Position numbers and translations under genes: made by a program
Source: an uncultured bacterium
GTDB lineage: Bacteria; Patescibacteriota; Minisyncoccia; UBA6257; GWB1-50-10
Assembly (NCBI GenBank): GCA_963768835.1
Contig: CAVYJB010000002.1
Coordinates: 459,082 to 523,081, forward strand
DNA length: 64,000 bases
Reading direction: 5' to 3'
Notes under the pieces: generated by a model
What the model was told of the DNA's origin: nothing
The model's database searches: none
Seen by the model: only the letters and a program-made list of their open reading frames with translations
Shown here: in pieces, positions 636 to 46,025 of the stretch
Layout of the letters: every line of letters begins with the position of its first letter
How positions within the stretch are numbered: position 1 is the stretch's first letter

Positions 636-665
636 CACGATTTTTAAACACCGTATTGTTATCGT

Positions 666-2914: not shown

Positions 2915-2918
2915 CATC

Positions 2919-3632: not shown

Positions 3633-3643
3633 CGAACACGACC

Positions 3644-21261: not shown

Positions 21262-21387
21262 GCGACACCTCTCTTTGGCTGTGGATGGAAATAGTTCTGG
21301 ATTTACAGTACTCATTTAGAACATTTTCGTCAAGATGGCGTTGCCCTAGATGGAACTTTCTTGAGAACGGCGGTACAATGCAAAATC

Positions 21388-29357: not shown

Positions 29358-32300
29358 ATGACCGTTCCCAAACCAAAGACTCCACGAACTAGGAAACCCC
29401 GCGTACCGAAAAACCCAACGGTACAACCTACGCCCATCTCAGACGTCTTAGAAGGGGGGCGTCGAACTATTTACCTTAGGGAGCGTTTTCCCCGCCTCGT
29501 CCAGCTCTCGCGCCAGCGTTTTGCAATCCCCATCTTTATTCTTGCCGCGGCGCTCGCGATAGTGGGGACCTATCAAGCGCTCTTCGTACACGCCGATCTC
29601 ACGACCCTTTACCCAAGCTCCTGTCTTGGCGGGTGGCGGTACCCGGGGAACGCGACAGGGAAGCCGGATATTCCCCTCGACATCGTCCCGGATCTGAACC
29701 AGTTTACGACGGCAAACTCCGCCATCTCGGATGGGGGAGAGAGTCCGCTCTTCTGCGGAAGTTTCACGGGCGACACACTCGATCCTGCGGCCACAATCAC
29801 GCATGTACGGCTCCGGTTTTCTCTCGCGGCCTTTTTCGGTTTGGATGCGGTGAAACGTGGAGCCGCCGCCGCGGCGGCGCCTGCCGGGAACGCGCCAGGG
29901 GATGTTCCTCTCCTCATTCTCGATACACGACCGTCGTCCACAGAACCTTCAGCGCTCCCCGAGGAAGGCTCTTCGACACCAACCGAGGAAAGTTTTTCGA
30001 CGTCTTCAACGGGTTCGACAGCCTCGCCACAGGTTCCTTCGGCAAGCTCAGGACAAGCGGATTCGACGGATACATCTCCCACCGCGACGGACACGCCTCC
30101 CACGCCATCAGCCCCTCCGGTCCTCCCGCCACCCAGCGATGCCTCGGGGACACTTCCGTCCGCTGCGCTCCGTACGCTCGCGGAACTCTTCTTCCCTCAT
30201 GCGGCTGCGCAGGAAGCATCTGCTTCAACCCCTTCAACAAATCCACCGCAAGCGGATTCAACAAGCTCACCAGAAGCGGATTCGATTCCTTCGATAGATT
30301 CAGGACAAGCGAACCCACCGCAAGCCGCTTCAGCTCCGAACGACGAAACCTCGACATCCCCAGTGCTTGTCTCACCACCCTTGCCGTCAGTGCCTTCCTC
30401 GACCCCTCCGACCTCCTCGACAAGCTCAGGAGAGGCGCCCTCGGGATCGGCGCCGCCTCTCGAACTTTCCGCATCTTCCACGAACGCCACCGGGACGCAG
30501 AACAGCGAGCTTGTCCCGACCTCTACTTCATCGAGTTCCCCTGAGGAATCTCCGGCTCCGTCTCCCGAGCCTCCCGCCCCCGCTCCTGCGGATACTACCT
30601 CCACCGCCTTCCTCGTGGTTTCCTATACCCTGGACGGCCAAACCTGGCAGCCGCTGGGGTACGTCACTCCCGACAACTGGCAGCAGGCGAACTTCGATGT
30701 TCCTGTCACTTCGACAGATGACATTTCGAAGCTTCAGGTGAGCGTAGAAAGCGTTCTCACGGCGGACCAGCCGCCCGTCGTGTACCTCGACGGCATGGCG
30801 CTTGAGGTGAGCTATGGGCCTCCGCCGGCTCCGAAAAGCCTGACGCCCGAGGATATCAACAAACTGTCGCGCGTCCAGGTGGATGCGAACAAGCTGTTCC
30901 GCGCGGCGAGACACGATTTCCGAGCCGGTGAGACCCCGTCCTTCGAGATCGATATTCCATCGAGCACGGACGCGCTCCTTTCTTCTCCTTCTTCTTCGGT
31001 CTCCACCTCGACCCTGGACGCGCCCGGAGAAGAAACGGTTCCCGGCGCTTCCACAACTCCTTCGGAAGGCGATATTCCATCCTCCTCTCCTGCCAGCGGC
31101 TTTTTGGATTCGCTGCGCAAGCTTGCAGGGATACCGGACGCAGCGGCGCAGACCTCCTCCTCAAGCATCCAGCGCGTGGAGGTCCTAGATATTTTCAATA
31201 ACCCGGTCGATGTCCAGCCGCAGGTCGTTCAGAACGGAAATCAGATTGTGATCAATTTCCCCGCGCCCCCGCGGGCGTTCCGTCCTGGGAGATACCAACT
31301 GGACGTGGAGGTGCTCGTGGGGGATACCGTCTATGCCTCGGAGCAGGACTTCACGTGGGGTATCCTCGCCCTTAACCTCGACCGCTCCATTTTCACACCG
31401 GGGCAGACGGCTTATTTACAAATGGCGGCCTTGAGCGATGAGGGGGACACGCTCTGCAACGCGAACCTCTCCCTCTCAATCACCGATCCGGGCGGAACTG
31501 TCACCCACGTCCCCGTGCAGCCGGGGGCTTCCTGCGGCCCGAACAACGTCACGGACGTTCCGGACTACACAGCTCATTATTCGGTGGGGAACACTACGGG
31601 TGTCTATACCATAACGCTTGAGAATCAGGATACCGGGCACACGATCACCGATACCTTCCAAGTCCAGAATTCCGTTCCGTTCGATGTGGAGCGCATAGGG
31701 GCGACCCGCATCAACCCGTTCATGTCCGACTATCGCATGCGTTTCCGCGTCACGGCGAATCAGGGCTTCGACGGCACCGTGCAGGAGCAGCTCCCGCAGG
31801 GTTTCGCCGTTATTGACCCAGGTGGCGGGGACGTTGCGGCGGGAGATGCCGCGACAATCCTTGGCTGGGAGGTACATCTTGCGGCGGGCCAGAGCATCGA
31901 GCTCTCCTACGTGTATCGGGCTCCCCGCGTGTCGCCGCAGTTCTATCTTCTCGGGCCCGCGCAGTTCATCCACCAAGCGGGCGTTCTGGATAAAATCGTG
32001 GGTTTTCTCTTCTCGAACCTCACGGGGTCCCAACCGCCCGTGGTATTCCAGGAAGCGCGGCAGTGGCAGCTCGCGGCGGACGCTTCCAACCCGGCTACCA
32101 TCCGCCAAGAGATCAATATTCTCGACCATACGTTCACCGCGGGGACCGTCGCCACTTCCTCGATGGAGATCGTGAACCTTAACCCGACGCAGTACGCGAC
32201 CGGGACCAATACCTTCTACTTCGAGATCGTCGCCTCAACGACCGGTGTTGTAGCGACCGCGACCCTGCAGGAAGCGGGGGGGCTTATCGACGCCACCACC

Positions 32301-35300
32301 ACCATCCCTGCGACCGCCACGTCCTCCACTCTCATCCGGACCGCGTTCACCCCCAATGCAGCCACGACGAACTACATTGTCGGTCTCCAAGGGCTCTCCT
32401 CCGGGTCGGCATATCTCCAGGCGGCCCGTATTGTCGTCAAAGAGGCCGCGACGAACTTCACAAACACAGAGACCCAGATCGAGATCGGAAACTACGAAAC
32501 GGGGAAAACGAACACCGCGACTTCAAGCTTGAGCAAACCGAAATACTGGCTGTATACCTCCTCGTCATGGGACGGCACAAAAACTTTCTACGCGGAGGTG
32601 ACGTACCAAACCAGCGCGTCGGTGACTACCTCAAGCATAGCCTCATCCTCGCTCTACACGGCGGCCGGCAACTTTACCTGGACGGCCCCCACAAACATCT
32701 ACGGGACGACGACCATGGAGGCGTGGGGTGCAGGTGGAGGTGGTGGAGGTGTGAACACGTCGAACGAGGGTGGTGGGGGTGGGGGTGGTGGCGCCTATGC
32801 GAGGGTTAACTCCTCCACGACTCCGGCGGGAACCCCGCTCGCGGTGACCGTCGGTGCGGCGGGCGGCGCTGGCGCGAGCTCGGGCGGGACCGGCGGTGTA
32901 GGTTCGACCTCGACCATCGCGACGAGCACGGTCGTGGCACAAGGTGGAAACGGTGGTGTCGGGAACGACGGGGCGGGAGGTACCGGGACGACCACACAGA
33001 GCGTCGGAGATGTGAAATTCGCGGGCGGCACCGGCTCCGCCGGTGCGTCGGCGTCGTACAGTGGTGGCGGTGGCGGTGGCGCAGGTTCAACCGGTGCCGG
33101 AGGCAGCGTGACCGCTACGACGACGGCCGGGCTGGGAACGACCGTGGGCGGCGGGAACGGCGGTGCGGGAAGACTGTCGTCCAGCGCGGGAGTCGGGAAT
33201 AATGGTAACCAGGCAGGCGGCGGTGGTTCCGGAGGGTACAGGGGGTCTTCTACGAACCGCGCCGGGGGCTCGGGAGGACCAGGGGAGGCAAAATTGACCT
33301 ATAGCCTGCTCGTCACGACCACGACGTTCGCCACCACCACTGTCTCTCTTCAGGAAGATAACGGTGCGTTCGGAGGATGGACGGACAAGCTCATCATCCT
33401 CGCTGCCGGTGTGAACACGACCTCGACGCGGGTCCGTGCGGGGCCTTTCACGCCCACGGACGGTCGGCACTACCGTTTGGCGTTTACGAACGCGACCACG
33501 ACCCGTGCCTTCAATATCTACAACGCGAAGATCATTGTGGACCAGGCGGGGAACCCGACGATGCTCGAACCCCAATACCTCCTCGCCAACACCGCGCTCG
33601 GCACGGGGACCTCCCTGCAAGGATTTCAGACCAAGTGGGATTCGACCGAGTGGAGCAATGTGTCGAACGTGTACCTCCACGAGGTGGAGGCCACCTCCTC
33701 CGCGACGTCCACCATCGAGCTGGACACCACCGGAGGGTCGCAGGTCGCCGGTTCCTCCATCGCGAATCCGAGCAACCTCGCGACCTCGACCCTCACGATG
33801 CCCGCGAGCCAGAACTTCGATGTGAAGGCCACCGCAAACTACGGGGGCATTTATGCGGACAGGATCCTGGTGGACGTTTCGTCCATTCTTCCGGTCTTCG
33901 AACAGACCGCGTACCGATGGTACCAGAATGCCAACATCGCTAACCTCCTCTTTGGTGTCGGGGGAGCCACCTCATCGAACCCATCGGCGGGTGATGACGA
34001 GGCGAACGGCATCGCCCTCAACGCCGCCTCGGGGACAATGTACGTGGCGGGGTATGATAATGCCAGCGGCACCGAATGGCGCATCGAAGCCCGCAACCTC
34101 TCCAACGGCTCGCTCATCTACGCGACGAACTCAATCCCGACCCTCAATTCTCCCGAGGCGAACGCCATCGCCATCAATGCCGCTTCAGGAACGATGTATG
34201 TGGTGGGGAGTGCGAATCCTGTTCTCGGGAACCTACAGTGGCGCATCGAAGCCCGCAACCTCTCCGACGGCTCGCTCATCTACGCGACAACCTCGAACCT
34301 AGCTGTGGGCACCAACATCGCGACCGCCATCGCCCTCAACGCCGCTTCGGGGACGATGTACGTGGCGGGGTATGATAATAGTCTTGGCGGCGGTGACCTA
34401 GAATGGCGCATCGAAGCCCGCAACCTCTCCGACGGCTCGCTCATCTACGCGACAACCTCGAACCCAACAGTCAATACAAACGAGGCGACCGCCATCGCCC
34501 TCAACGCCGCTTCGGGGACGATGTACGTGGCGGGGTATGATAGCCCTAGCGTCAGTGAGTGGCGCATCGAAGCCCGCAATCTCTCCAACGGCTCGCTCAT
34601 CTACGCGACGACCACTGCCCCGACCGCGGGTGGTGACCAAGCGACTTCCATCGCCCTCAATACCGCTTCGGGGACGATGTACGTGGCAGGGTCCGAGAAC
34701 AGCACTGGAAAATGGCGCATCGAGGCCCGCAACCTGTCCGACGGCTCGCTCGTCTACCGACAGTCTCTTAGCCTGACAACCTCTGACAAGGCGAAAACCA
34801 TCGCCCTCAATACCGCTTTGGGGACGATGTACGTGGCGGGGTATGACAATTTTGCTGCCGATACGGAATGGCACATTGAGGCCCGTAACCTCTCCGACGG
34901 CTCGCAGGTTTATGGGACAAGCTCGAACCCGACCGCGGGCCTTGACGAGGCGAACGGCATCGCCCTCAACGCCGCCTCGGGAAAGATGTACGTGGCGGGG
35001 TATGACAGCGGTGGTGGCACCGAATGGCGCATCGAAGCCCGCAACCTGTCCGACGGTACGCTTCTCAGCACCATCACCAGTCTTGTCCCCGGCACGCCCC
35101 TCGCGGCGCAGAACACCTCAACGACGCTCGGTACTGTGACGGCCTCGAGCACTTTCCGCCTACGCTTACTCCTCAAGGATTCCGTCGCCACCTCCACCAA
35201 TAGCAAGTTCAACCTGCAGGTCGCGAGCACGACAGTCGGTAACTGCCCCGGTAACTATACTGGGCTGACGTATACTAACGTCCCCACCTCGACGGGCTAC

Positions 35301-38300
35301 ATCACCTACAACACCAATAGTAACATCACTTACGGTACCGTCATCGCCACGAGCACCAACGACCCGACGAACGGCGGCGATACCGTCATCCCAGAGACCT
35401 ACAACGATCAGAATCCATTCTCCGTCGCTTCAGCCATCGGTTTGGGTCAGGACGGTGAGTGGGATTTCTCGCTCGTAAGCAGTAGCTCTATGCCCACGAG
35501 CACCGCTTTTTGCTTCCGAGCGGTCAATACCAGCGGCCAGCTCCTTACGACTACGACCGCTACGCAGATCCCTGAGATCGATACCCCGAATATATCAGCG
35601 GGAAGTACGATCAGTGGCTACCTTTACTCGGACGAGGGGGTGACCCTCACGACCTCCACGGTGAAGATTGCGGTGAACGGGTCCACACAATTTTCCTCGA
35701 CGACGATCGCGAGCTGGTACAACCCCTCCTGGCTATATCGGAAGCTCATCACTATCACGGGTTCCTTGGTCTCGGGCACGCAGACGGGCTTCCCGGTGCT
35801 TGTGAACACCACGGATCCGAACTGGGCCTACACCGGTAATGGCGGGCACATGGGTTCCTCGACGGGATATGACGCGCTCTTTACCGCTGCGGACGGCGTG
35901 ACGAAGCTGAACCATGAGGTGGAGTCCTACAATGCCACGTCGGGCCAGCTCGTCGCGTGGGTGCAGATACCCCAACTCACGGCGAGCACCACCTTCTATA
36001 TCTACTACGGCAACGCGGGGGCCAGCAACCAGCAGAACGCGACCTCCACCTGGGATGTAAACTATGCGGGCGTCTGGCACATGAATGAGGTCGGAGCGGC
36101 GACCACGACCGTGCCCGATTCAACAGGAAACAGAAACACAGGGACAAAGCTTTCCGCGTCCCAACCTTTCGCAACCTCCGGTCCCATTGCGGGCGCCCTC
36201 GCGTTTGACGGAAGCGCGGCGAAGATCACCACACCGTTCACGGCGACAACAACGAGCTTTACGCTTTCGGGATGGGTCTACTCAACGAGTACCGCGACCA
36301 CCGGAACGGTCAATAACGCGATGGCAGGATCGGTAAACAGCTCACGAGGTTTCGCGTTCTGGCCGGAGTGGGGCAACCCGGCGCCGCCGCAACAAGATAA
36401 CCTCATTGTCTACGGCAGTTCCGGGACCGTATCTCTGCAGACCTCCGACAACTTCAACCGGGGCGGCTGGTTCTATTTTGTGGCAACATATGCGAGCCCC
36501 AATGCCACGGTATACAAGAATGGAGCGTTCCTGAACTCGCAGAGTGTCGCTGTCGGTACCACTACAAACGTAGGATTCGACATCGGGGATCGTGGGGATG
36601 GTGCCCATTTCTGGCCCGGTGACATCGCCGAGGTACGACTCTCGACTATCGCACGCTCGGCGGCCTGGATCCTCACCGAGTACAACAACCAGTCTGCGCC
36701 GGGCGTGTTCTACACAGTGGGTCCCGAGCTGGCTTCAGGTGAATACTCATTTACTCTAGGTTCCTCCCTGAACACTGGCGATGTCATCACGGTCTGGATG
36801 GGGAACGGCATCTCGGCGCGCACGGGCGCGACTGTTACCCGCTGGTCAAACTCCCTCTCCACGCTTTCAGGCCTCAACATCTACCAACAGCACCTTATCG
36901 CGCGCCACGAGGACACAGGACCCCTCACCGACGCGAATATTCTCCTCTGCTCGAAGACTGCGGGGAGCGCCTGCTCGGACCCCGACCTCCACTTTGCGGC
37001 AGGCACGAACCCCAGTGACCTCACGGTGGACCCCGACTGGGGCCTCTATCTCTGGGGGGGGAAAACCTTCTCGCCGAACGGGACAGTCACGCTTTCTGCG
37101 GGCACCACCTCTTCGACCTACGGCGGCACTTTGAAGTGGGGGTCCTCGTCCACGATGCTCGCGGCGAGCACCTCCACGCTCTCCATTGGGGGGAGCTGGC
37201 TGAATGCTGTGGATGGGCTATTCTTCTCGTCCTCAGGTCAGGTCACCTTTTTTACAGGGAGTTCCTCACCAGTCTACAGCGTGGATAGCACTGGCAATAG
37301 TTTCCAGAATATCGTGTTTGGGTCTTCGACGCCCGCGACCAGCACTGCCTGGTACAGCGCCTCCTGGCTCCACCGTAAACTTATCAATATAACCGGTTCC
37401 CTCGTATCCGGCACACAAACAAACTTCCCGGTCCTTGTCTCGACCGTCGATCCGAACTTGGCTTACACCGGGAACGGCGGCCACGTGGGGACCTCCACAG
37501 GGAACGATATCCTTTTCACCGCCGCGGACGGCGTGACGAAGCTGAACCACGAGATCGAATCCTACACTTCCTCGACTGGGGCGCTTGTGGCCTGGGTTCA
37601 GGTGCCACAGCTTACCTCGACTACAAGTCTCTATATTTATTACGGCAACGCGGGGGCCAGCAACCAGCAAAACGCGACCTCCACCTGGGACCCCACTTTC
37701 TTGGGGGTTTGGCACTTAGGGGATTCTGCAAGCTCTGCCACCTCGATCGACTCCACCGGGAATGGGTATAGTGCAAAGAAGCAGGCGGTGAACAATCCGG
37801 CCGCGATTTCGACTGGCACTATTGATGGAGCTTCCTCCTTCAATGGCTCAACATCCTTCGCCTCCACATCCAAGCCGCTGAATTTGAATTCCACCACCAC
37901 AATCAGCGCTTGGGTTAAGCGCTACACAACTGGGGCCATCCAGCTCTACTTCACGAAGACAGATGCGCATGCTGGCAACTCCGACTACGCCGTCGGCTTC
38001 GAGGGCCCAGGGGCCAATGTCGACAAGTTCCAGTTTTGGGACAGCAATCTCAATCCCGGAACTCTCTATGCAGCACGTACGATTACCGATACCAATTGGC
38101 ACCAGCTTGTAGTAGTCACTGACTTCCATTGGTATGCAAGTTTCTATGTTGATGGCGCATTCGTGAACACAGGGACATACGATGGGAATAATAGCCAAAC
38201 CATCCATTCTTATCCCACTCACATCGGAGACGCGTTCGGGAACGCTCCTGATCTTTATTGGATGAATGGCGCGGTCGACGAACTTCGCGTCGCTTCCTCC

Positions 38301-41300
38301 CCCCGCTCGGCGGCCTGGATTCTCACCGAGTTTAACAATGAGTCCTCACCAGGCACCTTCTTAACGGTGAAGCCGGAGGATAGCTACCCGGGCGGTGTTT
38401 GGAACATCACGAGTGATTTAAATGCGAGCGGGAATCTTGCGGTTGTGACCGGGACGGTGGTGGGCTCCGCGAACGTCCTCATCGCGGGTGGGAACGCTAC
38501 GAGCAGCGGCGGCACGCTTAGCTTCGCAGGCGGTACCTTCACGCTTGCGCACCCCGGTTTCTACGGTGGTCTCCAGCCGTGGAGTCTCTACAACTTCATA
38601 GCTAGCTCCGGGGCCTCCGGCATCACCACAACCACTGGCACGGGCACCACAACGGTTACGGGCGCCTTCACTATCTGGCCGGGCTCCGGGTTCAACGCCG
38701 CGACCTCCACCTTTGTCCTTACAGCGATCTCCGGGGCGCCTTTCGTTCCCCAGGGCACCTTCCTGCCCGCCACCTCGACGGTCCTCTTCACGGGTGACGG
38801 CAACATTACAATCGCCTCCACGACCTACTATAATCTCACCCTCAGCCCAACCTTGACGGCAAGCCGAGCTTATAGTTTGGGAGGGCCGGGCATTATTCAG
38901 TTCATCCAAGCCACCTCGACGGTCACAACTACCACGGCGGCCTCTGTCACTTTCCCTTCGCCGGTAGGGGCAGGCGACACCATTATCGGCAGCATGATCG
39001 AGCCATCCGGTAGTACGGTCCAAGTCGGTGACACGCGGGGGAATTCCTACACCATTGCCGTTGGATCCTTCCCCGATCCCTTGGGCGACCTGATCTATAT
39101 GTTCTATGCCCCGAATGTGGCGGGCGGGCCAACCACGGTTATTGCCACGAGCTCTCTTGCCTCCCCGGCCTTCAATGAGCTCAACATTACCGAGTATAGC
39201 GGCCTCAATACCGTGAGCTCGTTGGACGCCATCTCCACTGGCACCAGCGTCGGCGGTGGTGTGAACCCCACAACTGCCACCACGACCATCACCTCTGCGA
39301 AGGAGCTCATCTGGGCCTACGGCCCGGATCTCGGTAGCGGCCTCAGTGCGGGGGCGAGTTTCACACCTCGGCTCGTCACGCAGGGCGATACCGTCGAAGA
39401 CAAAATCGTGTCCACTGCGGGATCCTACAGCGCCTACATGATTGCCACCACTACGAGCAACTGGGCCATCGTGATGGGGACTTTTAAGACGGGCCCAGGA
39501 TCCGGTATCCCTGGTGCGACAACAATCAACAACAATTTCCTTATCAACCCCACCTCCTCGAGTGCTCTGAACCTCGATGTAACTCTTGCCTCCACAACCA
39601 CCGTTCTTGGTGGGACGACCGTAATGAGTGGCGGTTCCTCCACTTCCACCCTCGACACGACGCCCTCAAACTCTTCCCTCACGACCGGGAATCTTACAAT
39701 CCAGGCGGGGGACGGTATGAATGCGAACGGTTCAAACGTGACCTTGACCGGCATCAACTCTCCTCTCGTTAATAACGGCCTCCTTTCCGTCGGCACCTCC
39801 ACCTTCATATACACCGGCGCCGGGGCCACGGTTGTTAACGCAAGCACCACGTACTGGAACCTTACGCTCCAGCCCGTATCCTCAGGCGCCGCTTTCGGGT
39901 ACCAGATGGCAACAGGCACCCCACTCACAGTTTCAAGCACGCTGAATGTGAACGGGTCAGGCGATGAAGGCGCAAACTGGACCCAGGCGACCTCGAGCGC
40001 CGCGTGGGCCGGGCGGAAATCCGAACCCGCCCTCGTCTATCACGGAAAGCTCTGGCTCCTCGGGGGGCAGCTATCGGGGCCTGTGGCGACCTCGAGCGTC
40101 TGGTCCTCCTCGGACGGTGTGAACTGGACCTTTATGGGTTACGCGCCTTGGACTGCGCGCTACTCGGCGGCGGGGCTTGTGTATAAGGACAAGATGTGGA
40201 TCATGGGCGGTACAGACCAATCCGCGGCGCGGAAGAATGATGTCTGGTGGTCCACCGACGGCGTGAACTGGACCCAGGCCACCTCGTCCGCGACCTGGGC
40301 GGCGCGTGAAGCCCCCCGCGCCGTCGTGTTCAAGGGCTACATGTGGATTGTGGGGGGGTACATCGGCTCTGTCACCCATGATGTCTACTATTCGTCGAGC
40401 GGCATCGCATGGGCTACAGCGACGTCGAGCGCGAACTGGTCTATCCGCTACTACAACGCGTTGGTCGTCAAGGACGGGAAGATGTGGGTGTACGGAGGGT
40501 ACGGAGGCGTTGATGACTGTGCGAGCGGTTCCCGCAACGATGTCTGGTGGTCCTCCGACGGCGTGAACTGGACCCAGGCGACTGCAAGCGCTCCCTGGGC
40601 CTGCCGATGGCAGCTTTCCTACGGTGTCTACGACAACAAGCTGTGGGTGGTGGGAGGGTACGATAGCTCGGCCGGCTATAGGACTGATGCTTGGTACTCG
40701 CCGGACGGAGTGAACTGGACAATGGCCACGAGTGGGACTGCAACGAAAACAAATGACACGCCGCTTTTAGCTTTCCAGAACCGCCTCTGGAGAATCGGCG
40801 GCGAAAATGGATCGTATTTGAACAATGTCTGGTACACACCTTCCTCGACCCTCACTGTCACGCTCGGAGCTACCACGACCGTTGCCTCGACGACGAACGT
40901 AAATGCGGGCATCCTCGATGCAACTTCCTTAAACTACCCGCTGACGACCATGAATCTCGCAGTCGGGCCCGGTGGCACCCTCACTGGTCGCGGCTCAGCG
41001 CTCCTCGCGACGGGGGATGTCAGTATCAATGGGTACGGTCGTGACAACGGTGGCATCCTCCAATCTACGACCAACACCCTCACTATCCAGGGCAACTACA
41101 CCCAAACTGGCACCTTCGCAAGCGGCACGACAGGAACCGTTCTCTTCAACGGAAGCGCTCAGCAGGTTCTAGCGGGGGAGATGACGGGCGGGAACGCGTT
41201 CGGCCTCCTCACCTTCGCGAACAACTCCGGAGGCGATCCTTCTTCCACCCCCTCCCTCATCGTTTCCTCGTCGCTCGACGCCGCAACTTCCACCATCACG

Positions 41301-42644
41301 ACTGCGAACGTGAAGGTCCGCTGGACCGCGGGTGCGACAACCACCATCTTCAACGGCGTGAACTGGAACGGACAGGCGAGCACGACGCGCATCGCGTTTC
41401 GAAGTTCGGTCTCGGGCACGCCTTGGGGCCTTATCGTGGAATCAACCTCCTCTGTTTTCAACGTGGACACGAAAGATTCGAATGCTTGCGGCCAAGCTAC
41501 CTCCTCTGCCCCGAACACAGCGAACAGCGCGACGACCATTACGGCGGGCAACGGCACGAGCCTGGACAGCGGGGGGAACTACTGCTGGAGCTTCGCCTCC
41601 TCCACGCAGACCCAATCCATCACGCTCACCCTAGACACCAATACTTTAAATCTCCCGAGCCTGACGCCGGGGGCTCCGGTCAAGGCGACCACGACCGCGA
41701 CCGTTAGTATCACAAACACAGGTGGGAGCGGGTACACCCTCTTTTTCAATCGGATCGCCACGACCTCGACGCTCACAGCTTTGGGAAGTGGCGGCGCCTC
41801 CTCGTCGGGGCCCTTTAATACCGCGACCGTCGTGAACGATGTCACGACCGGCACGATTGCATGGACCAGTCCGGGGAATGCAACGACGAGCGATAACGTG
41901 GTGGCATCGTCCGGCGTCTTCGGCGTCGTGGAGTCGAACTATCTGAAAGCGACAAACTTCGGTTTCTCCATCCCCTCGACCGCCACGGTGACTGGCATCA
42001 AGGTAGAGGTGCGGCGGGAGGATTCGAACTTGAACGCCTATGATGCATCCGTTCGTATTGTGAAGGGCGGGACCATCCAGAACGCGGTTGACGAGGCGAG
42101 TTCGACCGTGTGGCCGGTGTCGATGGCTTACGCCACATACGGTTCCTCCACGGATCTTTGGGGTACCACGTGGGCGCCCTCCGACATCAACGCTTCGAAC
42201 TTCGGTTTCGTGTTGGCGTGCCGGGGGGTCAGCTTCGGGGACACCTGCTGGGTCGACCAGATCCGCATCACGGCTTATTACACGGTCCCCGGTTACACCG
42301 GTGTAGCCACCTTCCCCGACTACGCGGCCTGGGCACCGACCGGCACGACTTGTTCACCGGGAGAGGGGAATGGGACCACAACCCCCAACCGGGCCTTTTC
42401 CTTCCGCGTCCAACAATCCGGCACGAACTCCAATTACTGTACAAACTGGTGGGGAGCAAACGATACCCTAGGCACCGCCATCTACGCTGGTACTCCGACC
42501 TCAACCCAGACCATCATGAATTGTCCTACCTGCAATTCCGGTACCACCGTAACCTACATTCTCTATCAGGCGGACGCTCCGGCGACCCAACCGATCGCTA
42601 GTTATACGGGTCAGGTCACTATCACGGCGCTTGCGAACCCATAA
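29358..42644 (+). CDS. giant (4,428 aa) membrane-anchored multidomain surface protein
   Basis: Uninterrupted 13.3-kb ORF. The N-terminal TM (AIPIFILAAALAIVGTY) is followed by a P/S/T-rich linker.
The Gly-rich domain WTAPTNIYGTTTMEAWGAGGGGGGVNTSNEGGGGGGGGAY resembles PF12810.
Seven tandem ..IALNAASGTMYVAGYD...EWRIEARNLSDGSLIYAT.. units resemble SBBP beta-propeller repeats.
Two DUF2341-like modules (WLYRKLITITGSLVSGTQTGFPVLV...YIYYGNAGASNQQNATSTWD) are each followed by a LamG-like domain.
Six Kelch-like W..DGVNWT repeats follow.
The C-terminal domain ends ...YTGQVTITALANP*, the motif shared with the downstream small proteins. Confidence 0.85.
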   Translation: MTVPKPKTPRTRKPRVPKNPTVQPTPISDVLEGGRRTIYLRERFPRLVQLSRQRFAIPIFILAAALAIVGTYQALFVHADLTTLYPSSCLGGWRYPGNATGKPDIPLDIVPDLNQFTTANSAISDGGESPLFCGSFTGDTLDPAATITHVRLRFSLAAFFGLDAVKRGAAAAAAPAGNAPGDVPLLILDTRPSSTEPSALPEEGSSTPTEESFSTSSTGSTASPQVPSASSGQADSTDTSPTATDTPPTPSAPPVLPPPSDASGTLPSAALRTLAELFFPHAAAQEASASTPSTNPPQADSTSSPEADSIPSIDSGQANPPQAASAPNDETSTSPVLVSPPLPSVPSSTPPTSSTSSGEAPSGSAPPLELSASSTNATGTQNSELVPTSTSSSSPEESPAPSPEPPAPAPADTTSTAFLVVSYTLDGQTWQPLGYVTPDNWQQANFDVPVTSTDDISKLQVSVESVLTADQPPVVYLDGMALEVSYGPPPAPKSLTPEDINKLSRVQVDANKLFRAARHDFRAGETPSFEIDIPSSTDALLSSPSSSVSTSTLDAPGEETVPGASTTPSEGDIPSSSPASGFLDSLRKLAGIPDAAAQTSSSSIQRVEVLDIFNNPVDVQPQVVQNGNQIVINFPAPPRAFRPGRYQLDVEVLVGDTVYASEQDFTWGILALNLDRSIFTPGQTAYLQMAALSDEGDTLCNANLSLSITDPGGTVTHVPVQPGASCGPNNVTDVPDYTAHYSVGNTTGVYTITLENQDTGHTITDTFQVQNSVPFDVERIGATRINPFMSDYRMRFRVTANQGFDGTVQEQLPQGFAVIDPGGGDVAAGDAATILGWEVHLAAGQSIELSYVYRAPRVSPQFYLLGPAQFIHQAGVLDKIVGFLFSNLTGSQPPVVFQEARQWQLAADASNPATIRQEINILDHTFTAGTVATSSMEIVNLNPTQYATGTNTFYFEIVASTTGVVATATLQEAGGLIDATTTIPATATSSTLIRTAFTPNAATTNYIVGLQGLSSGSAYLQAARIVVKEAATNFTNTETQIEIGNYETGKTNTATSSLSKPKYWLYTSSSWDGTKTFYAEVTYQTSASVTTSSIASSSLYTAAGNFTWTAPTNIYGTTTMEAWGAGGGGGGVNTSNEGGGGGGGGAYARVNSSTTPAGTPLAVTVGAAGGAGASSGGTGGVGSTSTIATSTVVAQGGNGGVGNDGAGGTGTTTQSVGDVKFAGGTGSAGASASYSGGGGGGAGSTGAGGSVTATTTAGLGTTVGGGNGGAGRLSSSAGVGNNGNQAGGGGSGGYRGSSTNRAGGSGGPGEAKLTYSLLVTTTTFATTTVSLQEDNGAFGGWTDKLIILAAGVNTTSTRVRAGPFTPTDGRHYRLAFTNATTTRAFNIYNAKIIVDQAGNPTMLEPQYLLANTALGTGTSLQGFQTKWDSTEWSNVSNVYLHEVEATSSATSTIELDTTGGSQVAGSSIANPSNLATSTLTMPASQNFDVKATANYGGIYADRILVDVSSILPVFEQTAYRWYQNANIANLLFGVGGATSSNPSAGDDEANGIALNAASGTMYVAGYDNASGTEWRIEARNLSNGSLIYATNSIPTLNSPEANAIAINAASGTMYVVGSANPVLGNLQWRIEARNLSDGSLIYATTSNLAVGTNIATAIALNAASGTMYVAGYDNSLGGGDLEWRIEARNLSDGSLIYATTSNPTVNTNEATAIALNAASGTMYVAGYDSPSVSEWRIEARNLSNGSLIYATTTAPTAGGDQATSIALNTASGTMYVAGSENSTGKWRIEARNLSDGSLVYRQSLSLTTSDKAKTIALNTALGTMYVAGYDNFAADTEWHIEARNLSDGSQVYGTSSNPTAGLDEANGIALNAASGKMYVAGYDSGGGTEWRIEARNLSDGTLLSTITSLVPGTPLAAQNTSTTLGTVTASSTFRLRLLLKDSVATSTNSKFNLQVASTTVGNCPGNYTGLTYTNVPTSTGYITYNTNSNITYGTVIATSTNDPTNGGDTVIPETYNDQNPFSVASAIGLGQDGEWDFSLVSSSSMPTSTAFCFRAVNTSGQLLTTTTATQIPEIDTPNISAGSTISGYLYSDEGVTLTTSTVKIAVNGSTQFSSTTIASWYNPSWLYRKLITITGSLVSGTQTGFPVLVNTTDPNWAYTGNGGHMGSSTGYDALFTAADGVTKLNHEVESYNATSGQLVAWVQIPQLTASTTFYIYYGNAGASNQQNATSTWDVNYAGVWHMNEVGAATTTVPDSTGNRNTGTKLSASQPFATSGPIAGALAFDGSAAKITTPFTATTTSFTLSGWVYSTSTATTGTVNNAMAGSVNSSRGFAFWPEWGNPAPPQQDNLIVYGSSGTVSLQTSDNFNRGGWFYFVATYASPNATVYKNGAFLNSQSVAVGTTTNVGFDIGDRGDGAHFWPGDIAEVRLSTIARSAAWILTEYNNQSAPGVFYTVGPELASGEYSFTLGSSLNTGDVITVWMGNGISARTGATVTRWSNSLSTLSGLNIYQQHLIARHEDTGPLTDANILLCSKTAGSACSDPDLHFAAGTNPSDLTVDPDWGLYLWGGKTFSPNGTVTLSAGTTSSTYGGTLKWGSSSTMLAASTSTLSIGGSWLNAVDGLFFSSSGQVTFFTGSSSPVYSVDSTGNSFQNIVFGSSTPATSTAWYSASWLHRKLINITGSLVSGTQTNFPVLVSTVDPNLAYTGNGGHVGTSTGNDILFTAADGVTKLNHEIESYTSSTGALVAWVQVPQLTSTTSLYIYYGNAGASNQQNATSTWDPTFLGVWHLGDSASSATSIDSTGNGYSAKKQAVNNPAAISTGTIDGASSFNGSTSFASTSKPLNLNSTTTISAWVKRYTTGAIQLYFTKTDAHAGNSDYAVGFEGPGANVDKFQFWDSNLNPGTLYAARTITDTNWHQLVVVTDFHWYASFYVDGAFVNTGTYDGNNSQTIHSYPTHIGDAFGNAPDLYWMNGAVDELRVASSPRSAAWILTEFNNESSPGTFLTVKPEDSYPGGVWNITSDLNASGNLAVVTGTVVGSANVLIAGGNATSSGGTLSFAGGTFTLAHPGFYGGLQPWSLYNFIASSGASGITTTTGTGTTTVTGAFTIWPGSGFNAATSTFVLTAISGAPFVPQGTFLPATSTVLFTGDGNITIASTTYYNLTLSPTLTASRAYSLGGPGIIQFIQATSTVTTTTAASVTFPSPVGAGDTIIGSMIEPSGSTVQVGDTRGNSYTIAVGSFPDPLGDLIYMFYAPNVAGGPTTVIATSSLASPAFNELNITEYSGLNTVSSLDAISTGTSVGGGVNPTTATTTITSAKELIWAYGPDLGSGLSAGASFTPRLVTQGDTVEDKIVSTAGSYSAYMIATTTSNWAIVMGTFKTGPGSGIPGATTINNNFLINPTSSSALNLDVTLASTTTVLGGTTVMSGGSSTSTLDTTPSNSSLTTGNLTIQAGDGMNANGSNVTLTGINSPLVNNGLLSVGTSTFIYTGAGATVVNASTTYWNLTLQPVSSGAAFGYQMATGTPLTVSSTLNVNGSGDEGANWTQATSSAAWAGRKSEPALVYHGKLWLLGGQLSGPVATSSVWSSSDGVNWTFMGYAPWTARYSAAGLVYKDKMWIMGGTDQSAARKNDVWWSTDGVNWTQATSSATWAAREAPRAVVFKGYMWIVGGYIGSVTHDVYYSSSGIAWATATSSANWSIRYYNALVVKDGKMWVYGGYGGVDDCASGSRNDVWWSSDGVNWTQATASAPWACRWQLSYGVYDNKLWVVGGYDSSAGYRTDAWYSPDGVNWTMATSGTATKTNDTPLLAFQNRLWRIGGENGSYLNNVWYTPSSTLTVTLGATTTVASTTNVNAGILDATSLNYPLTTMNLAVGPGGTLTGRGSALLATGDVSINGYGRDNGGILQSTTNTLTIQGNYTQTGTFASGTTGTVLFNGSAQQVLAGEMTGGNAFGLLTFANNSGGDPSSTPSLIVSSSLDAATSTITTANVKVRWTAGATTTIFNGVNWNGQASTTRIAFRSSVSGTPWGLIVESTSSVFNVDTKDSNACGQATSSAPNTANSATTITAGNGTSLDSGGNYCWSFASSTQTQSITLTLDTNTLNLPSLTPGAPVKATTTATVSITNTGGSGYTLFFNRIATTSTLTALGSGGASSSGPFNTATVVNDVTTGTIAWTSPGNATTSDNVVASSGVFGVVESNYLKATNFGFSIPSTATVTGIKVEVRREDSNLNAYDASVRIVKGGTIQNAVDEASSTVWPVSMAYATYGSSTDLWGTTWAPSDINASNFGFVLACRGVSFGDTCWVDQIRITAYYTVPGYTGVATFPDYAAWAPTGTTCSPGEGNGTTTPNRAFSFRVQQSGTNSNYCTNWWGANDTLGTAIYAGTPTSTQTIMNCPTCNSGTTVTYILYQADAPATQPIASYTGQVTITALANP
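33960..35100 (+). repeat. seven tandem ~156-165-nt coding repeats (beta-propeller SBBP-like) within the giant gene
   Basis: TGGCGCATCGAAGCCCGCAACCT recurs near 34077, 34239, 34404, 34560, 34713, 34868 and 35024. Confidence 0.75.
35710..38380 (+). repeat. internal duplication of a ~1.0-kb DUF2341+LamG-like module (copies at ~35710-36730 and ~37350-38380)
   Basis: WYNPSWLYRKLITITGSLVSGTQTGFPVLVNTTDPNWAYTGNGGHMG...ARSAAWILTEYNN aligns with WYSASWLHRKLINITGSLVSGTQTNFPVLVSTVDPNLAYTGNGGHVG...PRSAAWILTEFNN. Confidence 0.75.
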
Positions 42645-42709
42645 TGATGCTCTGGAGACTACCATCTCCCAATCCTGTGGATAATTTAGCATTCAGAACG
42701 ACTTTGGTA

Positions 42710-42718
42710 TGGTATACT
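42710..42718 (+). promoter_or_regulatory. extended -10 promoter element TGGTATACT upstream of the small WxL-like gene
   Basis: TTTGGTATGGTATACT. The same TGTGGTATACT element recurs upstream of the paralog at 48193-48201. Confidence 0.4.
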
Positions 42719-42798
42719 TATCCAGTAGCGAGGCATTTCCTCTCCAATCACCAAAATTCAAGAAAAGAAAAGGTCGGAACGACAGTTTGTATGAAAAA

Positions 42799-43497
42799 AT
42801 GAGGAATCACATTAATTTAGAGACCGTTATAGGAGGGATTGCGGTTGTAGGCATGGCCGCGTTTATGTTCAGTGGAGTAGCGGGGTCGTTCTGGTCCGTT
42901 TTGGACATCCAGCACGCTTTTGCCGGCACTTCCACTTCGACCAACCAGACCATTAACCTGACCGTGAACCAGGTTATCACGCTTTTTCTTTCCACAACGA
43001 CGCTCACGCTGCCATCCCTCACGCCTGGCATCCCGGTTTCAGGGAATGCATCGGCAACCGTCACGACAAATGCCGACCAGGGTTTCCAGCTTCTCTTCAA
43101 TCGCGTGAATAACCCGACCTCGACCCTAACCTACGGCGCCACCTCGACCTTCCCGGATGCGACGAACACCTGGAACCCGACGTTGTTCGGTGGTGTTGGT
43201 AACGCAACAGACACGACCCGCACAGTGGTTCAGTCGGACCTTTCTTTCCGCGTGGCATCCTCTGGAACCACCGGTTCGCTCCTGAACACTTCGTACTGGG
43301 GTTCGGTTGACACGGACGGTGTTGGGCAGGCGGAGTATGCAGGTTTCCCGACCACAAGTCAGGTCGTTGCTTCGACAAGTACTTATACCGGTGTCTCGCA
43401 GATCATCACCTATAAGGTACGTGCGGACGCTCCGCTGACGCAACGATCCGGTACTTATTCCGGTCAGATTACCATCACAGCGACGGCGCAGCCATAG
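42799..43497 (+). CDS. small secreted WxL-like (SCPU/WxL-like) surface protein, member of a local paralog family
   Basis: Signal anchor followed by AGTSTSTNQTINLTVNQVITLFLSTTTLTLPSLTPGIPVSGNASATVTTNADQGFQL. The C-terminus RSGTYSGQITITATAQP* matches the C-terminus of the giant protein (YTGQVTITALANP*) and of 48226..48896 (YTGQITITATALP*). Start chosen downstream of the promoter element. Confidence 0.6.
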   Translation: MRNHINLETVIGGIAVVGMAAFMFSGVAGSFWSVLDIQHAFAGTSTSTNQTINLTVNQVITLFLSTTTLTLPSLTPGIPVSGNASATVTTNADQGFQLLFNRVNNPTSTLTYGATSTFPDATNTWNPTLFGGVGNATDTTRTVVQSDLSFRVASSGTTGSLLNTSYWGSVDTDGVGQAEYAGFPTTSQVVASTSTYTGVSQIITYKVRADAPLTQRSGTYSGQITITATAQP

Positions 43498-43685
43498 TTT
43501 TACCCCGCTGGGGTTTCTTCTTGGGAAGAGCCTGTGACTCTCTCGACCTCAGCGGGTGCGTCGCCAACCGCTCGTGTAGTTCTCTGTCCCGTTTCTTTGG
43601 TAGATTGACAGAGAGCAAGAGTGGGGCCACAATTTCTCCTGAAGGAGTTCTCCTGCCTGAGGGGAGCGATGCTACCATAAATGTA

Positions 43686-44591
43686 ATGAAGAGGAAAGTA
43701 TTCAGCCTTTCGGTTCTTGTTCTGTCAGTCGTGTTCGGTATGTTGCTTTTTCCATCCGCAGGTTTTGCGCAGGTGGGTATTTCTTTGTTCCCGATTAAGT
43801 TTCGCGTGACGATAAACCCGGGCGATACGTACTCCGACACGGTCACGGTCATGAACCCGAACAGCTTTCCAATTGGTGTCCAGCCAGAGATCGAGAACAT
43901 CGGTGGGGGCGATGAGGGCGCCATTACGCTCATTGCGGGCGATGCGCCCTACGGCCTCATGTCATGGATCCAGATGACCAAGGACCCGTTCACCCTAGCG
44001 CCGAACGAGCGACGCCAGGTACCTTTTAGCATCGTGATTCCCAAAGATGGTGAACCCGGTGGTCACTACGGAGCTATCCTTTTCCGAGCCATCCAACCCA
44101 CGAATGGCACTTCCACTCAAAGTGGTGTAGGAGTCTCGGGACGCGTCGGGAGTGTCATCTTGGTAGAGGTTCCTGGAGCGACCCAAAAGACCGGAGAACT
44201 CTACAATTTTACGGGCCCGTCTTATATGTCTCACGGACCCGTCACGTTCACTTTTCATGTAAAAGACACAGGAAACACTCACTTTGATCCCACTGGTGCG
44301 GTGACAGTGAGCGGATGGTTCATGGCGGACGCGGTGCTTCCTTTTGAGTCGCGCGTCGTCTTCCCGGGGTACTCGCGGACTTTCACGGCCACATGGCCGT
44401 CCCGCTATGCTTTTGGCCCGCTCACAGCAAAGGTGGAGGTACAAATGCCGGATGGAGGTACACAGGTAGCTACCCTGTCCTTCTTCGCGTTTCCATGGCA
44501 GGAAGGCCTTATCGTAGTGGTGGGCCTTTCCGCTCTGTGGTTTGTGGCTCGCTTTTTCAAACGAAAGTTCAAGATCGTGAAGGTTTCCTAG
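43686..44591 (+). CDS. CscA-like (DUF916/DUF3324-like) secreted protein with C-terminal transmembrane anchor
   Basis: Signal peptide (MKRKVFSLSVLVLSVVFGMLLFPSAGFAQ), beta-rich Ig-like domains (FPIKFRVTINPGDTYSDTVTVMNPNSFPIG ... HYGAILFRAIQP ... GRVGSVILVEVPG) and a C-terminal TM plus basic tail (LIVVVGLSALWFVARFFKRKFKIVKVS). This mirrors WxL-interacting proteins of Firmicutes csc clusters. The assignment is inference. Confidence 0.5.
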   Translation: MKRKVFSLSVLVLSVVFGMLLFPSAGFAQVGISLFPIKFRVTINPGDTYSDTVTVMNPNSFPIGVQPEIENIGGGDEGAITLIAGDAPYGLMSWIQMTKDPFTLAPNERRQVPFSIVIPKDGEPGGHYGAILFRAIQPTNGTSTQSGVGVSGRVGSVILVEVPGATQKTGELYNFTGPSYMSHGPVTFTFHVKDTGNTHFDPTGAVTVSGWFMADAVLPFESRVVFPGYSRTFTATWPSRYAFGPLTAKVEVQMPDGGTQVATLSFFAFPWQEGLIVVVGLSALWFVARFFKRKFKIVKVS

Positions 44592-44605
44592 TGCCCTACG
44601 TATGA

Positions 44606-45097
44606 ATGCGTATCTTGCACCCTTTTGCTCGTTCTTTTCTCGCATTTTTTTCTGCGCTCGTTCTTTCGATTGAGTTCCCCGCGCTGCCGATAGCCCGTGC
44701 GCAGATTTTGACGACTTCGAGTTCGCAGACCGTGACTGTTGAGGTCTGCCCCTGCGAGATTCCTCCACCTCCTCCACCGCCCCCCCCACCGCCTCCCAGT
44801 GGAGGCGGTGGGGGTGTTTTCGGCGGCACTCTTCTGTCACCGCTTCCCCCCGCGCCGGCGCGCCCTATACCCTCGAAGCGCATTCTCCGGTCGGTGGATT
44901 TCAACCACGATGGCAAGGTGGACATTATCGACCTCTCCATCCTTCTCTACTACTACAACCGTTTTAGGCCAGGGGTCGACCGTGCGGATGTTGATATCAA
45001 CGGTGATGGGGTCGTGGATCTAACCGATGTCTCTATCTTTCTCTATTATTGGGGCGGCTCCGGCGTCATCGAGGTGGCGAGTGGAACAGGAAATTGA
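44606..45097 (+). CDS. secreted dockerin-domain protein with poly-proline linker
   Basis: Signal peptide, P12 plus G5 linker, then two Ca-binding dockerin repeats (DFNHDGKVDIIDLSILLYYY and DINGDGVVDLTDVSIFLYYW). Confidence 0.6.
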   Translation: MRILHPFARSFLAFFSALVLSIEFPALPIARAQILTTSSSQTVTVEVCPCEIPPPPPPPPPPPPSGGGGGVFGGTLLSPLPPAPARPIPSKRILRSVDFNHDGKVDIIDLSILLYYYNRFRPGVDRADVDINGDGVVDLTDVSIFLYYWGGSGVIEVASGTGN

Positions 45098-45099
45098 CC

Positions 45100-46020: not shown

Positions 46021-46025
46021 GAAGC

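Follow-up and report, generated by a model that had tools for sequence, protein, structure and literature searches.

A 4,428-residue LamG/propeller protein and a WxLIP homolog in a conserved Patescibacteria gene cassette: a candidate surface adhesin locus

The window, i.e., the whole 64-kb stretch of DNA analyzed here, harbors a conserved six-gene cassette that encodes a large protein, a small tail-only protein, a WxLIP homolog, a dockerin protein, a TM protein and a cohesin protein. The large member, read from the ORF list and its translation, is a giant ORF of 4,428 aa at 29358..42644 (+), in agreement with the single 13.3-kb ORF of the original prediction. The names of homologs place the organism, an ultrasmall CPR bacterium of the Paceibacteria type, in Paceibacterota/Minisyncoccia. 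The flanking genes are housekeeping genes (MnmA, EF-P, AlaRS, AspRS), and an origin from a prophage or mobile element, which was also considered, is therefore unsupported. The giant protein gave no match in an NCBIfam search, and the Pfam search left about half of it without a family assignment.

A Kyte-Doolittle scan of the giant protein revealed exactly one hydrophobic TM-like segment, located near the N-terminus as predicted (aa ~54-78, 29520..29588, +), which may serve as a signal anchor or a long signal peptide; the VHA↓DL sequence behind it is a possible cleavage site. A conserved N-terminal domain follows in two pieces (aa 78-165 and 414-488; 29589..30821, +), split by a low-complexity linker of ~250 aa (aa ~166-413) with 66% P/S/T/A, which corresponds to the P/S/T linker expected at ~230 aa. 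Both pieces match a separate protein of 500-560 aa encoded upstream of the cassette in relatives, and the domain has no Pfam match. The Ig-like domains that had been listed stay putative, the sole Pfam match being a sub-threshold one to an MG2-like β-sandwich at aa 674-769 (31377..31664, +; E 2.6e-7, 31.3 bits vs the 32.8 cut-off). A Gly-rich domain is indeed present at aa 1101-1315 (32658..33302, +), but its family is PF21722 (Gly_rich_2; E 6e-10, 39.9 bits vs 24.3, full-length match to model positions 1-225/226) rather than the proposed PF12810, which the Pfam scan did not return. A search of this segment against PDB sequences matched nothing, with no ALK/LTK-type match.

Seven repeats of ~52 aa occupy aa ~1533-1906 (33954..35075, +) and form a seven-bladed β-propeller, as indicated by the repeats themselves, AF2 modeling and Foldseek. 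Seven copies of the motif WRIEARNLS lie at aa 1574-1890 with a spacing of 51-55 aa, and the corresponding DNA is a tandem array with a period of 156 nt and 6.8 copies (33991..35056). The number and length of the repeats are as foreseen, but they are not near-identical, with a pairwise identity of 53-75% at the amino acid and 73% at the nucleotide level. The AF2 model of the region is a closed seven-bladed propeller with 7 x 4 = 28 strands (pLDDT 91.4, pTM 0.90), for which Foldseek returned YncE, BamB and WD40 propellers; target-normalised TM-scores for the seven-bladed YncE/WD40 structures were 0.68-0.81. The blades had also been described as SBBP-like. No Pfam SBBP (PF06739) match was obtained for the repeat region at E<=5, and the sole Pfam match was a sub-threshold one to DUF5122 (26.3 bits vs the 27 cut-off); the region does align in register (31% over 379 aa) with the homolog P0132, in which Pfam recognises SBBP in 6 stretches (E 7.5e-21). 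Taken with the seven-bladed AF2 fold, this homolog places the propeller in a distant relationship to SBBP.

Downstream of the propeller, two DUF2341 + Laminin_G_3 modules were identified at aa 2112-2457 (35691..36728, +; Pfam E 2.3e-9 and 4.4e-13) and aa 2654-3007 (37317..38378, +; E 6.2e-12 and 1.9e-15), all four Pfam matches lying above cut-off, as the prediction of two such modules would have it. Internal duplications were identified by tiling the giant protein against a masked copy of itself. High amino acid identity had been claimed for both module ends; it amounts to 65% over the first 179 aa and to 41% at the far end, with no detectable similarity in the stretch that separates the two ends, and the DNA of the modules is 77% identical over 344 nt. 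Since the modules have diverged to this extent and the propeller repeats likewise, the idea of recent internal duplications finds no support, and the DUF2341-LamG duplication is, judging from this divergence, old. The next recognised region is a six-repeat Kelch propeller (aa 3535-3829, 39960..40844, +), in which the predicted W..DGVNWT repeats are evident as six (D)G(V)NWT copies at aa 3538-3783, 48-52 aa apart. Profile matches comprise Kelch_1 in 4 stretches (E 7.6e-16) and Kelch_KLHDC2_KLHL20_DRC7 (58.9 bits vs the 50 cut-off), and the PDB sequences matched are the Kelch propellers of LZTR1, KLHL20 and KEAP1.

The C-terminal tail of the giant protein, ~170 aa in total, is split by an insert and is homologous to the 232-aa protein encoded by the next gene (BLASTP E 2e-16). 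Its first part (aa 4084-4140, 41607..41777, +; QSITLTL...LPSLTPG...GYTLFFNR) was delimited by motifs and by BLASTP to residues 75-119 of the small paralog, and its second part (aa 4313-4428, 42294..42641, +) ends with YTGQVTITALANP. The gap between the two BLASTP segments contains a nested domain of ~170 aa (aa 4141-4312, 41778..42293, +), for which neither a Pfam match nor any family was found. The giant's tail lacks the first of two N-terminal strands present in the small proteins. At E<=1e-3, the tail family comprises 392 representatives (50% clustering) and is unannotated and so far unnamed. The domain is C-terminal in every complete protein listed, both in small proteins of ~200-230 aa and in large ones of up to 4,200 aa, and further members of 3,773-4,200 aa approach the size of the giant protein. 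Their passengers vary: one carries nine LamG domains, another a combination of SBBP, LamG, Flg_new and Filamin, and many have none that can be recognised.

The tail had been called WxL-like, which applies to its gene context but not to its recognition as a domain. Pfam WxL (PF13731) matched neither the giant's tail nor the small protein, nor any of the 58 tail-family members (0/58) at E<=5, and a canonical WxL HMM matched none of 3,170 ORFs in CPR loci. When the family was compared by hhalign with 13 authentic WxL proteins, E-values of 0.037-0.056 were obtained at a probability of ~1%, with 0.32 for the reversed control; global and greedy alignments did not reach significance. The first Trp-x-Leu motif does appear in the family consensus (GWxLxV), its W being nearly invariant in the close small family; the giant protein has YTL and its small neighbour FQL at this position. 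The second motif is absent from the family and is replaced by (I/Y)T(A), within ...YxGxITYTATxNP. The tail profile gave chance matches only among PDB sequences, and tblastn of a family member against plasmids returned nothing. AF2 modeling of the small protein, the only tail-family model, was of moderate quality (pLDDT 64.7); its closest structural neighbours, all of weak similarity, were donor-strand-complemented fibre subunits, including the chaperone-usher pilins CfaB, CsuA/B and FimA, TasA, and archaeal bundling pili/cannulae, and the top neighbours of this moderate-quality model did not include 9i25_A, the solved WxL chain.

The small tail-only protein (232 aa; 42799..43497, +) consists of a signal peptide and the tail domain, as indicated by a 100% match to P0001 and by the family alignment, and its start lies 30 codons downstream of that of the 262-aa ORF version. 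The small-family alignment shows a conserved N-terminal strand and a C-terminal YxGxITITAxxxP motif. The gene is followed by a terminator-like hairpin and then by the WxLIP (DUF916-type) homolog (301 aa; 43686..44591, +), in which a signal peptide is followed by two β-sandwich domains and, at the C-terminus, by a TM helix with a basic tail. PF06030 matches 34 of the 36 members of this homolog's family (best E 5.8e-13), the protein in the window itself scoring 24 bits, below the cut-off of 27.3, and DUF3324 was not matched. By hhalign, the family aligns with 7 authentic WxLIPs over 243 columns with a probability of 98.3% and E 1.4e-14, and the best PDB match is EfmWxLIP1 (9i25/9i1y; E 6.5e-5). 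The cassette continues with a small secreted dockerin protein that has a poly-Pro spacer (163 aa; 44606..45097, +; Pfam Dockerin_1 E 1.4e-8, 35.2 bits vs 22.9), a 306-aa protein that has hydrophobic segments at both ends and no Pfam match (45100..46020, +; a gene call in the independent contig), and a 703-aa membrane protein with cohesin and Y_Y_Y domains (46026..48137, +; Pfam Cohesin 34.2 bits vs the 24.1 cut-off). Behind it, tblastn pieces in different frames and a motif scan revealed a second small tail-domain paralog with at least two frameshifts (48226..48896, +), which is either a pseudogene or affected by indel errors. A regex search through the six reading frames of the window detected no LPXTG sorting signal and no TLxTC sortase signature; sortase anchoring of the giant protein was rejected on this ground, and the result fits non-covalent anchoring.

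To assess the conservation of this context, loci of relatives were compared. A tail-domain ORF was detected in 56 of 80 Patescibacteria WxLIP loci, nearly always directly upstream of the WxLIP gene and on the same strand, and at least 15 CPR genomes share the syntenic gene order small-WxLIP-dockerin-cohesin. Among the 17 closest loci, 15 contain at least two tail-domain ORFs, in nine of them in the order large then small. The last ~111 aa of the syntenic large proteins are 55-67% identical to the giant's tail, whereas these proteins measure only 261-1,604 aa in length and differ in their passenger regions. The conserved tails and short, differing passengers indicate that the passenger region was rebuilt, and enlarged greatly, in the present lineage. 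The description of the giant protein as fast-evolving thus holds through its variable passengers and lengths, and not through recent duplications.

The adhesin clusters of Firmicutes, such as those of enterococci and lactobacilli, show a layout of large WxL, small WxL and WxLIP (DUF916-DUF3324-TM) genes (PMC9772566, PMC10599100), which was also seen in the authentic clusters compared here. Hassan et al. (2023) define a WxL gene cluster as one that holds, in a span of four genes, at least one WxLIP and at least two WxL proteins. At the present locus, a full-length WxLIP homolog (PGBD/DUF916, second β-sandwich, C-terminal TM) lies beside large and small neighbours with a common C-terminal domain, a pairing that recurs in relatives. 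As in the WxL (Csc) clusters of Lactobacillales/Bacillales, the last domain of the large protein corresponds to a small protein made of a signal peptide and that domain, the WxLIP gene comes next, the tails of large and small proteins are distinct subtypes, and the large protein has variable, adhesin-like passengers. The motifs of the two domains are also collinear (strand-FG, V.V.(D/N)...G(W)xLxV, L.VP..(T/Q)...Y...(L/I)T(W/Y/I)T...P). In contrast to these clusters, neither Pfam nor profile-profile comparison identifies the present tail as WxL, I/Y-T-A replaces the second Trp-x-Leu, an LPXTG protein or sortase is missing, a conserved dockerin-cohesin pair is present, the organism belongs to Patescibacteria rather than Firmicutes, and the large protein has 4,428 aa vs 500-1,600 aa in the Firmicute examples. 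A giant LamG/propeller mosaic by itself is not unusual for such genomes: giant surface proteins with LamG, β-propeller and Ig-like arrays, as found in CPR and other uncultured bacteria, are similar in size, T/S/G/A-rich composition, N-terminal TM and modules. What sets the present protein apart is an anchoring context made up of its tail domain, the neighbouring WxLIP gene and the conserved cassette, a context of which no description was found in the searchable literature.

We consider it reasonably likely that the giant protein is a displayed adhesin with its tail docked non-covalently to the membrane WxLIP. The surface adhesin of lectin-like and propeller modules suggested by the original prediction fits all findings, and the export signal or anchor, the tail common to the small neighbour and the adjoining WxLIP homolog strengthen this reading; binding of a ligand would follow from the modules. 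The protein would be exported via its N-terminal signal/anchor, and the ~170-aa β-sandwich tail would dock on the membrane-anchored WxLIP homolog, probably by β-strand complementation, as is predicted for Firmicute WxL-WxLIP pairs; the tail may also contact the cell wall, and a comparable site would be filled by the small paralog. The passenger region of ~4,000 aa, with its Gly-rich domain, seven-bladed propeller, two DUF2341-LamG lectin-like modules, Kelch propeller and unassigned β-rich stretches, would project outward as a multivalent binding array, by which the cell probably attaches to a host cell or glycan surface. If the N-terminal TM stayed uncleaved, both ends of the protein would be tethered, which would count against this model. 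Also weighing against it are the failure of WxL profiles to recognise the tail, the moderate-quality tail model with 9i25_A outside its top neighbours, the half of the protein that lacks a family and the G-tract frameshift of the alternative assembly.

CPR/Patescibacteria live attached to other cells, and to our knowledge the way they hold on is largely unexplained. With its WxLIP homolog, small tail-only protein, dockerin-cohesin pair and variable large protein, the locus offers a concrete and widely conserved attachment candidate, and it extends a WxL-type architecture beyond Firmicutes. The tail family could serve to list the displayed surface proteins of Patescibacteria, and tail-WxLIP binding, together with a comparison to the solved WxL-WxLIP complex (PDB 9i25), makes it possible to test the anchoring step. 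A far wider reading, which we regard as rather doubtful, is that of an undescribed, Patescibacteria-wide WxLIP-centred display, in which the unnamed C-terminal β-sandwich, an ancient and extremely diverged WxL relative, would be strand-complemented on WxLIP and/or built into a small-subunit fibre and would carry lineage-specific giant host-gripping adhesins, with G-tract slippage as a possible on/off switch of the adhesin.

A fibre or pilus would be an unlikely alternative to docking on WxLIP. Here the small protein would polymerise by donor-strand exchange, with the groove of each subunit accepting the conserved N-terminal strand of its neighbour. The giant protein would be a tip or terminal subunit like FimH, and WxLIP would serve either as the base in the membrane or as a chaperone that donates a strand in the manner of PapD. 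The conserved strand QTINLTVNQTITLxLS right after the signal peptide of the small proteins resembles that of donor-strand-complemented subunits (CfaB, CsuA/B, FimA; TasA), and its pLDDT of 35-48 in the monomer model is expected if it becomes ordered only in a partner. The lack of the first N-terminal strand in the giant's tail, the hairpin after the small gene and the recurrent weak DUF4402 matches (11 of 58 tail-family members) point the same way, and the combination of an adhesin part with a C-terminal pilin-like domain recalls FimH/PapG.

The passenger modules and the cassette could also serve a cellulosome-like capture of nutrients, the LamG/DUF2341 modules, propellers and cohesin-dockerin proteins binding and processing polysaccharides or other polymers instead of attaching to a host. 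Carbohydrate binding is common among LamG and propeller folds, cohesin and dockerin proteins are conserved in the cassette, and a role in carbohydrate utilisation has reportedly been proposed for the Csc (WxL) clusters of Lactobacillus. Yet no catalytic domain, be it a glycoside hydrolase, a lyase or another enzyme, was detected by Pfam in the giant protein or elsewhere in the cassette, and the dockerin protein, at just 163 aa, has no enzyme module, so we judge this use to be improbable.

That the long ORF arose from misassembly at its repeats, or that the real population carries the gene as a non-functional pseudogene, is very unlikely, since a 13.3-kb ORF would hardly be open by chance at 55-60% GC and every recognised domain is complete and in frame. 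As a check for a chimera, the window was compared with an independent assembly. Positions 35018..47486 were recovered in the Logan per-run assembly of ERR11594402 with 0 mismatches and 1 indel over 12.5 kb, matching the 3' 7.6 kb of the ORF, and a second contig spans its first 131 codons. Given the agreement over 12.5 kb, a chimeric origin is excluded for the two LamG modules, the Kelch region and the tail. The independent assembly breaks within the seven-repeat array and shortly past the start codon, which would fit misassembly, and the linker, Gly-rich domain and seven repeats (29752..35018), outside both contigs, are read from the GenBank assembly alone. The frameshifts of the neighbouring tail-domain paralog would fit a pseudogene, as would a G8 homopolymer within the ORF (37054..37061, +) that the independent assembly reads as G7, with truncation at codon 2592. 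Phase variation at this tract was considered; since about two runs of G>=8 are expected in 64 kb of such composition, sequencing error is at least as likely, and a one-base homopolymer difference is a typical error of this kind.

The open reading frame of 4,428 codons at 29358..42644 (+) encodes a giant protein for which the original prediction of an adhesin is reasonable, and the gene context adds support. The more informative finding is this context itself, a conserved WxLIP-centred cassette, together with an unnamed C-terminal domain family, both in Patescibacteria. In the giant protein, T/S/G/A make up 47% of residues and the only hydrophobic segment lies at aa 54-78. Pfam, run on the entire protein and on 17 overlapping segments, identified Gly_rich_2 (PF21722; aa 1101-1315), two copies of DUF2341 + Laminin_G_3 (aa 2112-2457 and 2654-3007), Kelch_1 with a Kelch-domain model (aa ~3535-3829) and a sub-threshold MG2 beta-sandwich (aa 674-769). 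No NCBIfam match was obtained for the protein, and Kelch propellers were its sole matches in a PDB sequence search. The predicted architecture stands for the most part, with corrections to repeat identity and duplication age among others. The DUF2341-LamG modules share 65% identity across 179 aa at their N-terminal ends, 41% aa identity at their C-terminal ends and 77% nucleotide identity across 344 nt, so that the duplication, first described as recent, is instead old. A 47%-identical pair of ~65-aa segments (aa 3101-3164 and 3443-3506; window 38658-38849 and 39684-39875), bracketing a ~280-aa stretch without a family (aa 3165-3442), is a further internal duplication that had gone unmentioned.

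The seven repeats, which carry WRIEARNLS at aa 1574, 1628, 1683, 1735, 1786, 1838 and 1890, are real and correspond to a DNA tandem array at 33991..35056 (period 156 nt, 6.8 copies), but they are not near-identical as proposed, sharing only 53-75% amino acid and 73% nucleotide identity. Pfam returned no SBBP match for this region, its only signal being a DUF5122 propeller match slightly below the cut-off. Numerous homologs in Bacteroidota, Nitrospirota, Planctomycetota and Saccharimonadales (35-43% identity, ~90% of the length covered) share the repeat 'WRIEKR ... NPS ... D.A.AIA.D....YV.G.D'. P0132, one of these homologs, is assigned to SBBP by Pfam and aligns in register across 379 aa, and AlphaFold, supplied with an alignment of 60 sequences, produced a 28-stranded closed propeller (pLDDT 91.4, pTM 0.90) whose PDB neighbours are the seven-bladed YncE and WD40 and the eight-bladed BamB. 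Describing the repeats as seven SBBP-like blades is therefore correct in the sense of a distant relationship.

An independent per-run assembly (ERR11594402) matches 35018..47486 (12.5 kb) with 0 mismatches and one indel inside the giant ORF, G7 in that assembly against G8 in the window at 37054-37061; the G7 version would end translation between the LamG modules, at codon 2592. Because this contig starts within the seventh repeat and another contig stops at about 29752, the stretch 29752..35018 lies outside the independently supported sequence. The G7/G8 difference may reflect slipped-strand switching (phase variation); sequencing error is as likely, since G-runs this long are expected about twice per 64 kb at this composition. 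Further G7 tracts lie at 32276-32282 and 40352-40358.

The next gene (42799..43497) encodes a 232-aa protein consisting of a signal peptide and the tail domain, with nothing else. The giant protein matches it in two pieces, aa 4103-4152 with residues 75-119 and aa 4313-4428 with residues 112-232 (E 2e-16); a ~170-aa domain (aa 4141-4312; window 41778-42293) is therefore nested within the tail domain of the giant protein, where it separates the ...FFNR strand from the ...TFPDY segment; this nested domain has no Pfam family and is missing from the small paralog. The small-protein family carries no Pfam annotation and occurs in Paceibacterota/Minisyncoccia MAGs. A profile of the tail family recovered 392 members at E<=1e-3 among 1.84 billion representative proteins, comprising a class of ~200-230 aa and a large class reaching 4,200 aa with highly diverse passengers. 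The domain forms the extreme C-terminus in all complete proteins among those listed, and the common ending is VPxTQxxGxYxGxITYTATxNP.

Downstream, 43686..44591 encodes a WxLIP/DUF916 homolog of 301 aa, in which a signal peptide and a C-terminal TM helix accompany two beta-sandwich domains. PF06030 matches 34 of the 36 members of its family, and an hhalign comparison with seven authentic WxLIPs, taken from plasmids of Enterococcus, Lactiplantibacillus and Bacillus, gave a probability of 98.3% (E 1.4e-14, 243 columns). Among PDB entries it best matches the solved EfmWxLIP1 (9i25, 9i1y), and one relative already bears the NCBI name 'DUF916 domain-containing protein'. A terminator-like hairpin immediately past the small-protein stop codon (43502-43514, +) and a promoter-like TTGACA-17-CACAAT ahead of the WxLIP gene (43605-43633, +), both consensus matches only, could give the small subunit a different expression level. 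Also downstream of the WxLIP homolog are genes for a secreted 163-aa dockerin protein with a poly-proline spacer (44606-45097, +), a 306-aa TM protein and a 703-aa cohesin/Y_Y_Y membrane protein (46026-48137, +).

What defines a WxL cluster is the combination of a large and a small WxL protein with a WxLIP (DUF916-DUF3324-TM) (PMC9772566; PMC10599100). The cassette shares this layout and has a genuine WxLIP, whereas its tail domain fails the WxL sequence tests: Pfam WxL matched none of 58 tail-family members, a WxL HMM from 13 authentic proteins matched none of 3,170 ORFs of CPR loci, and hhalign of the tail family against authentic WxL gave E 0.037-0.056 (reversed control, 0.32). The domain also has no second Trp-x-Leu motif, and on these grounds we treat it as a putative WxL analogue rather than a family member. 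It may be a very remote homolog. In a greedy alignment the two domains are collinear across 149 columns and three of their motifs correspond, without statistical support. We found no paper connecting WxL or DUF916 clusters to Patescibacteria.

The strand directly after the signal peptide is strongly conserved, yet it is the lowest-confidence part of the monomer model, which agrees with the proposed docking by strand complementation. In the preferred version, the tail would dock on the WxLIP, by analogy with 9i25 and Firmicute predictions; in WxL proteins, the predicted filler of the beta-sandwich gap is a WxLIP strand (PMC9772566; PMC10599100). In the alternative version, the small subunit would polymerise and the giant protein would be the terminal subunit.

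To assess conservation, the WxLIP-like alignment was scanned against one genome per GTDB species, yielding 154 relatives labelled nearly all as Patescibacteria lineages (Paceibacterota, Jorgensenbacteria, Saccharibacteria, Woesebacteria, Magasanikiibacteriota, Berkelbacteria, Uhrbacteria, Doudnabacteria, Gracilibacteria, Peribacteria and Microgenomates). A tail-domain ORF was detected in 56 of the 80 kept WxLIP loci, in nearly all of them immediately 5' of WxLIP on the same strand; 15 of the 17 closest loci contain at least two, nine of these ordered large - small - WxLIP. At least 15 genomes retain the order small - WxLIP - dockerin - cohesin. The dockerin and cohesin genes belong to this co-directional cassette, their synteny with WxLIP is seen in at least 15 genomes of Patescibacteria, and the pair appears to be a fixed component of the surface system.

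The last ~111 aa of the giant protein are 55-67% identical to the syntenic large proteins of relatives, only 261-1,604 aa long, versus 40% to its own small neighbour. Giant aa 36-160 and 414-488 (window 29463-29837 and 30597-30821), the N-terminal region of TM segment plus domain, have a homolog in a separate protein of 500-560 aa, whose gene lies a few kb 5' of the cassette in relatives (e.g., 1439-3049 in locus L014 and 659-2353 in L019). This homology suggests a partial origin of the giant gene by fusion; the P/S/T-rich linker has been inserted into this N-terminal domain. Taken together, the shared tail, the short syntenic proteins and the separate N-terminal homolog make the giant protein look like the cassette's variable member after lineage-specific fusion and expansion.

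In L005, a Logan SRR7589087 contig of 34% GC from a low-GC organism very different from that of the window, three small tail-domain genes are followed by two consecutive WxLIP-like genes (288-4264); the tail-family/WxLIP pairing therefore extends beyond close relatives. Immediately past the cohesin gene of the window, a second small tail-domain paralog (48226-48896, +) has the C-terminal ending YTGQITITATALP and a reading frame broken at least two times, being either a decaying paralog or the product of assembly indel errors. Two further genes of the window are typical of Patescibacteria genomes: one for a type IV secretion coupling protein of the VirD4/TrwB type (24255-26180, +), a few kb 5' of the giant gene, and one for an alanyl-tRNA synthetase that is short, at 595 aa (21361-23148, +).
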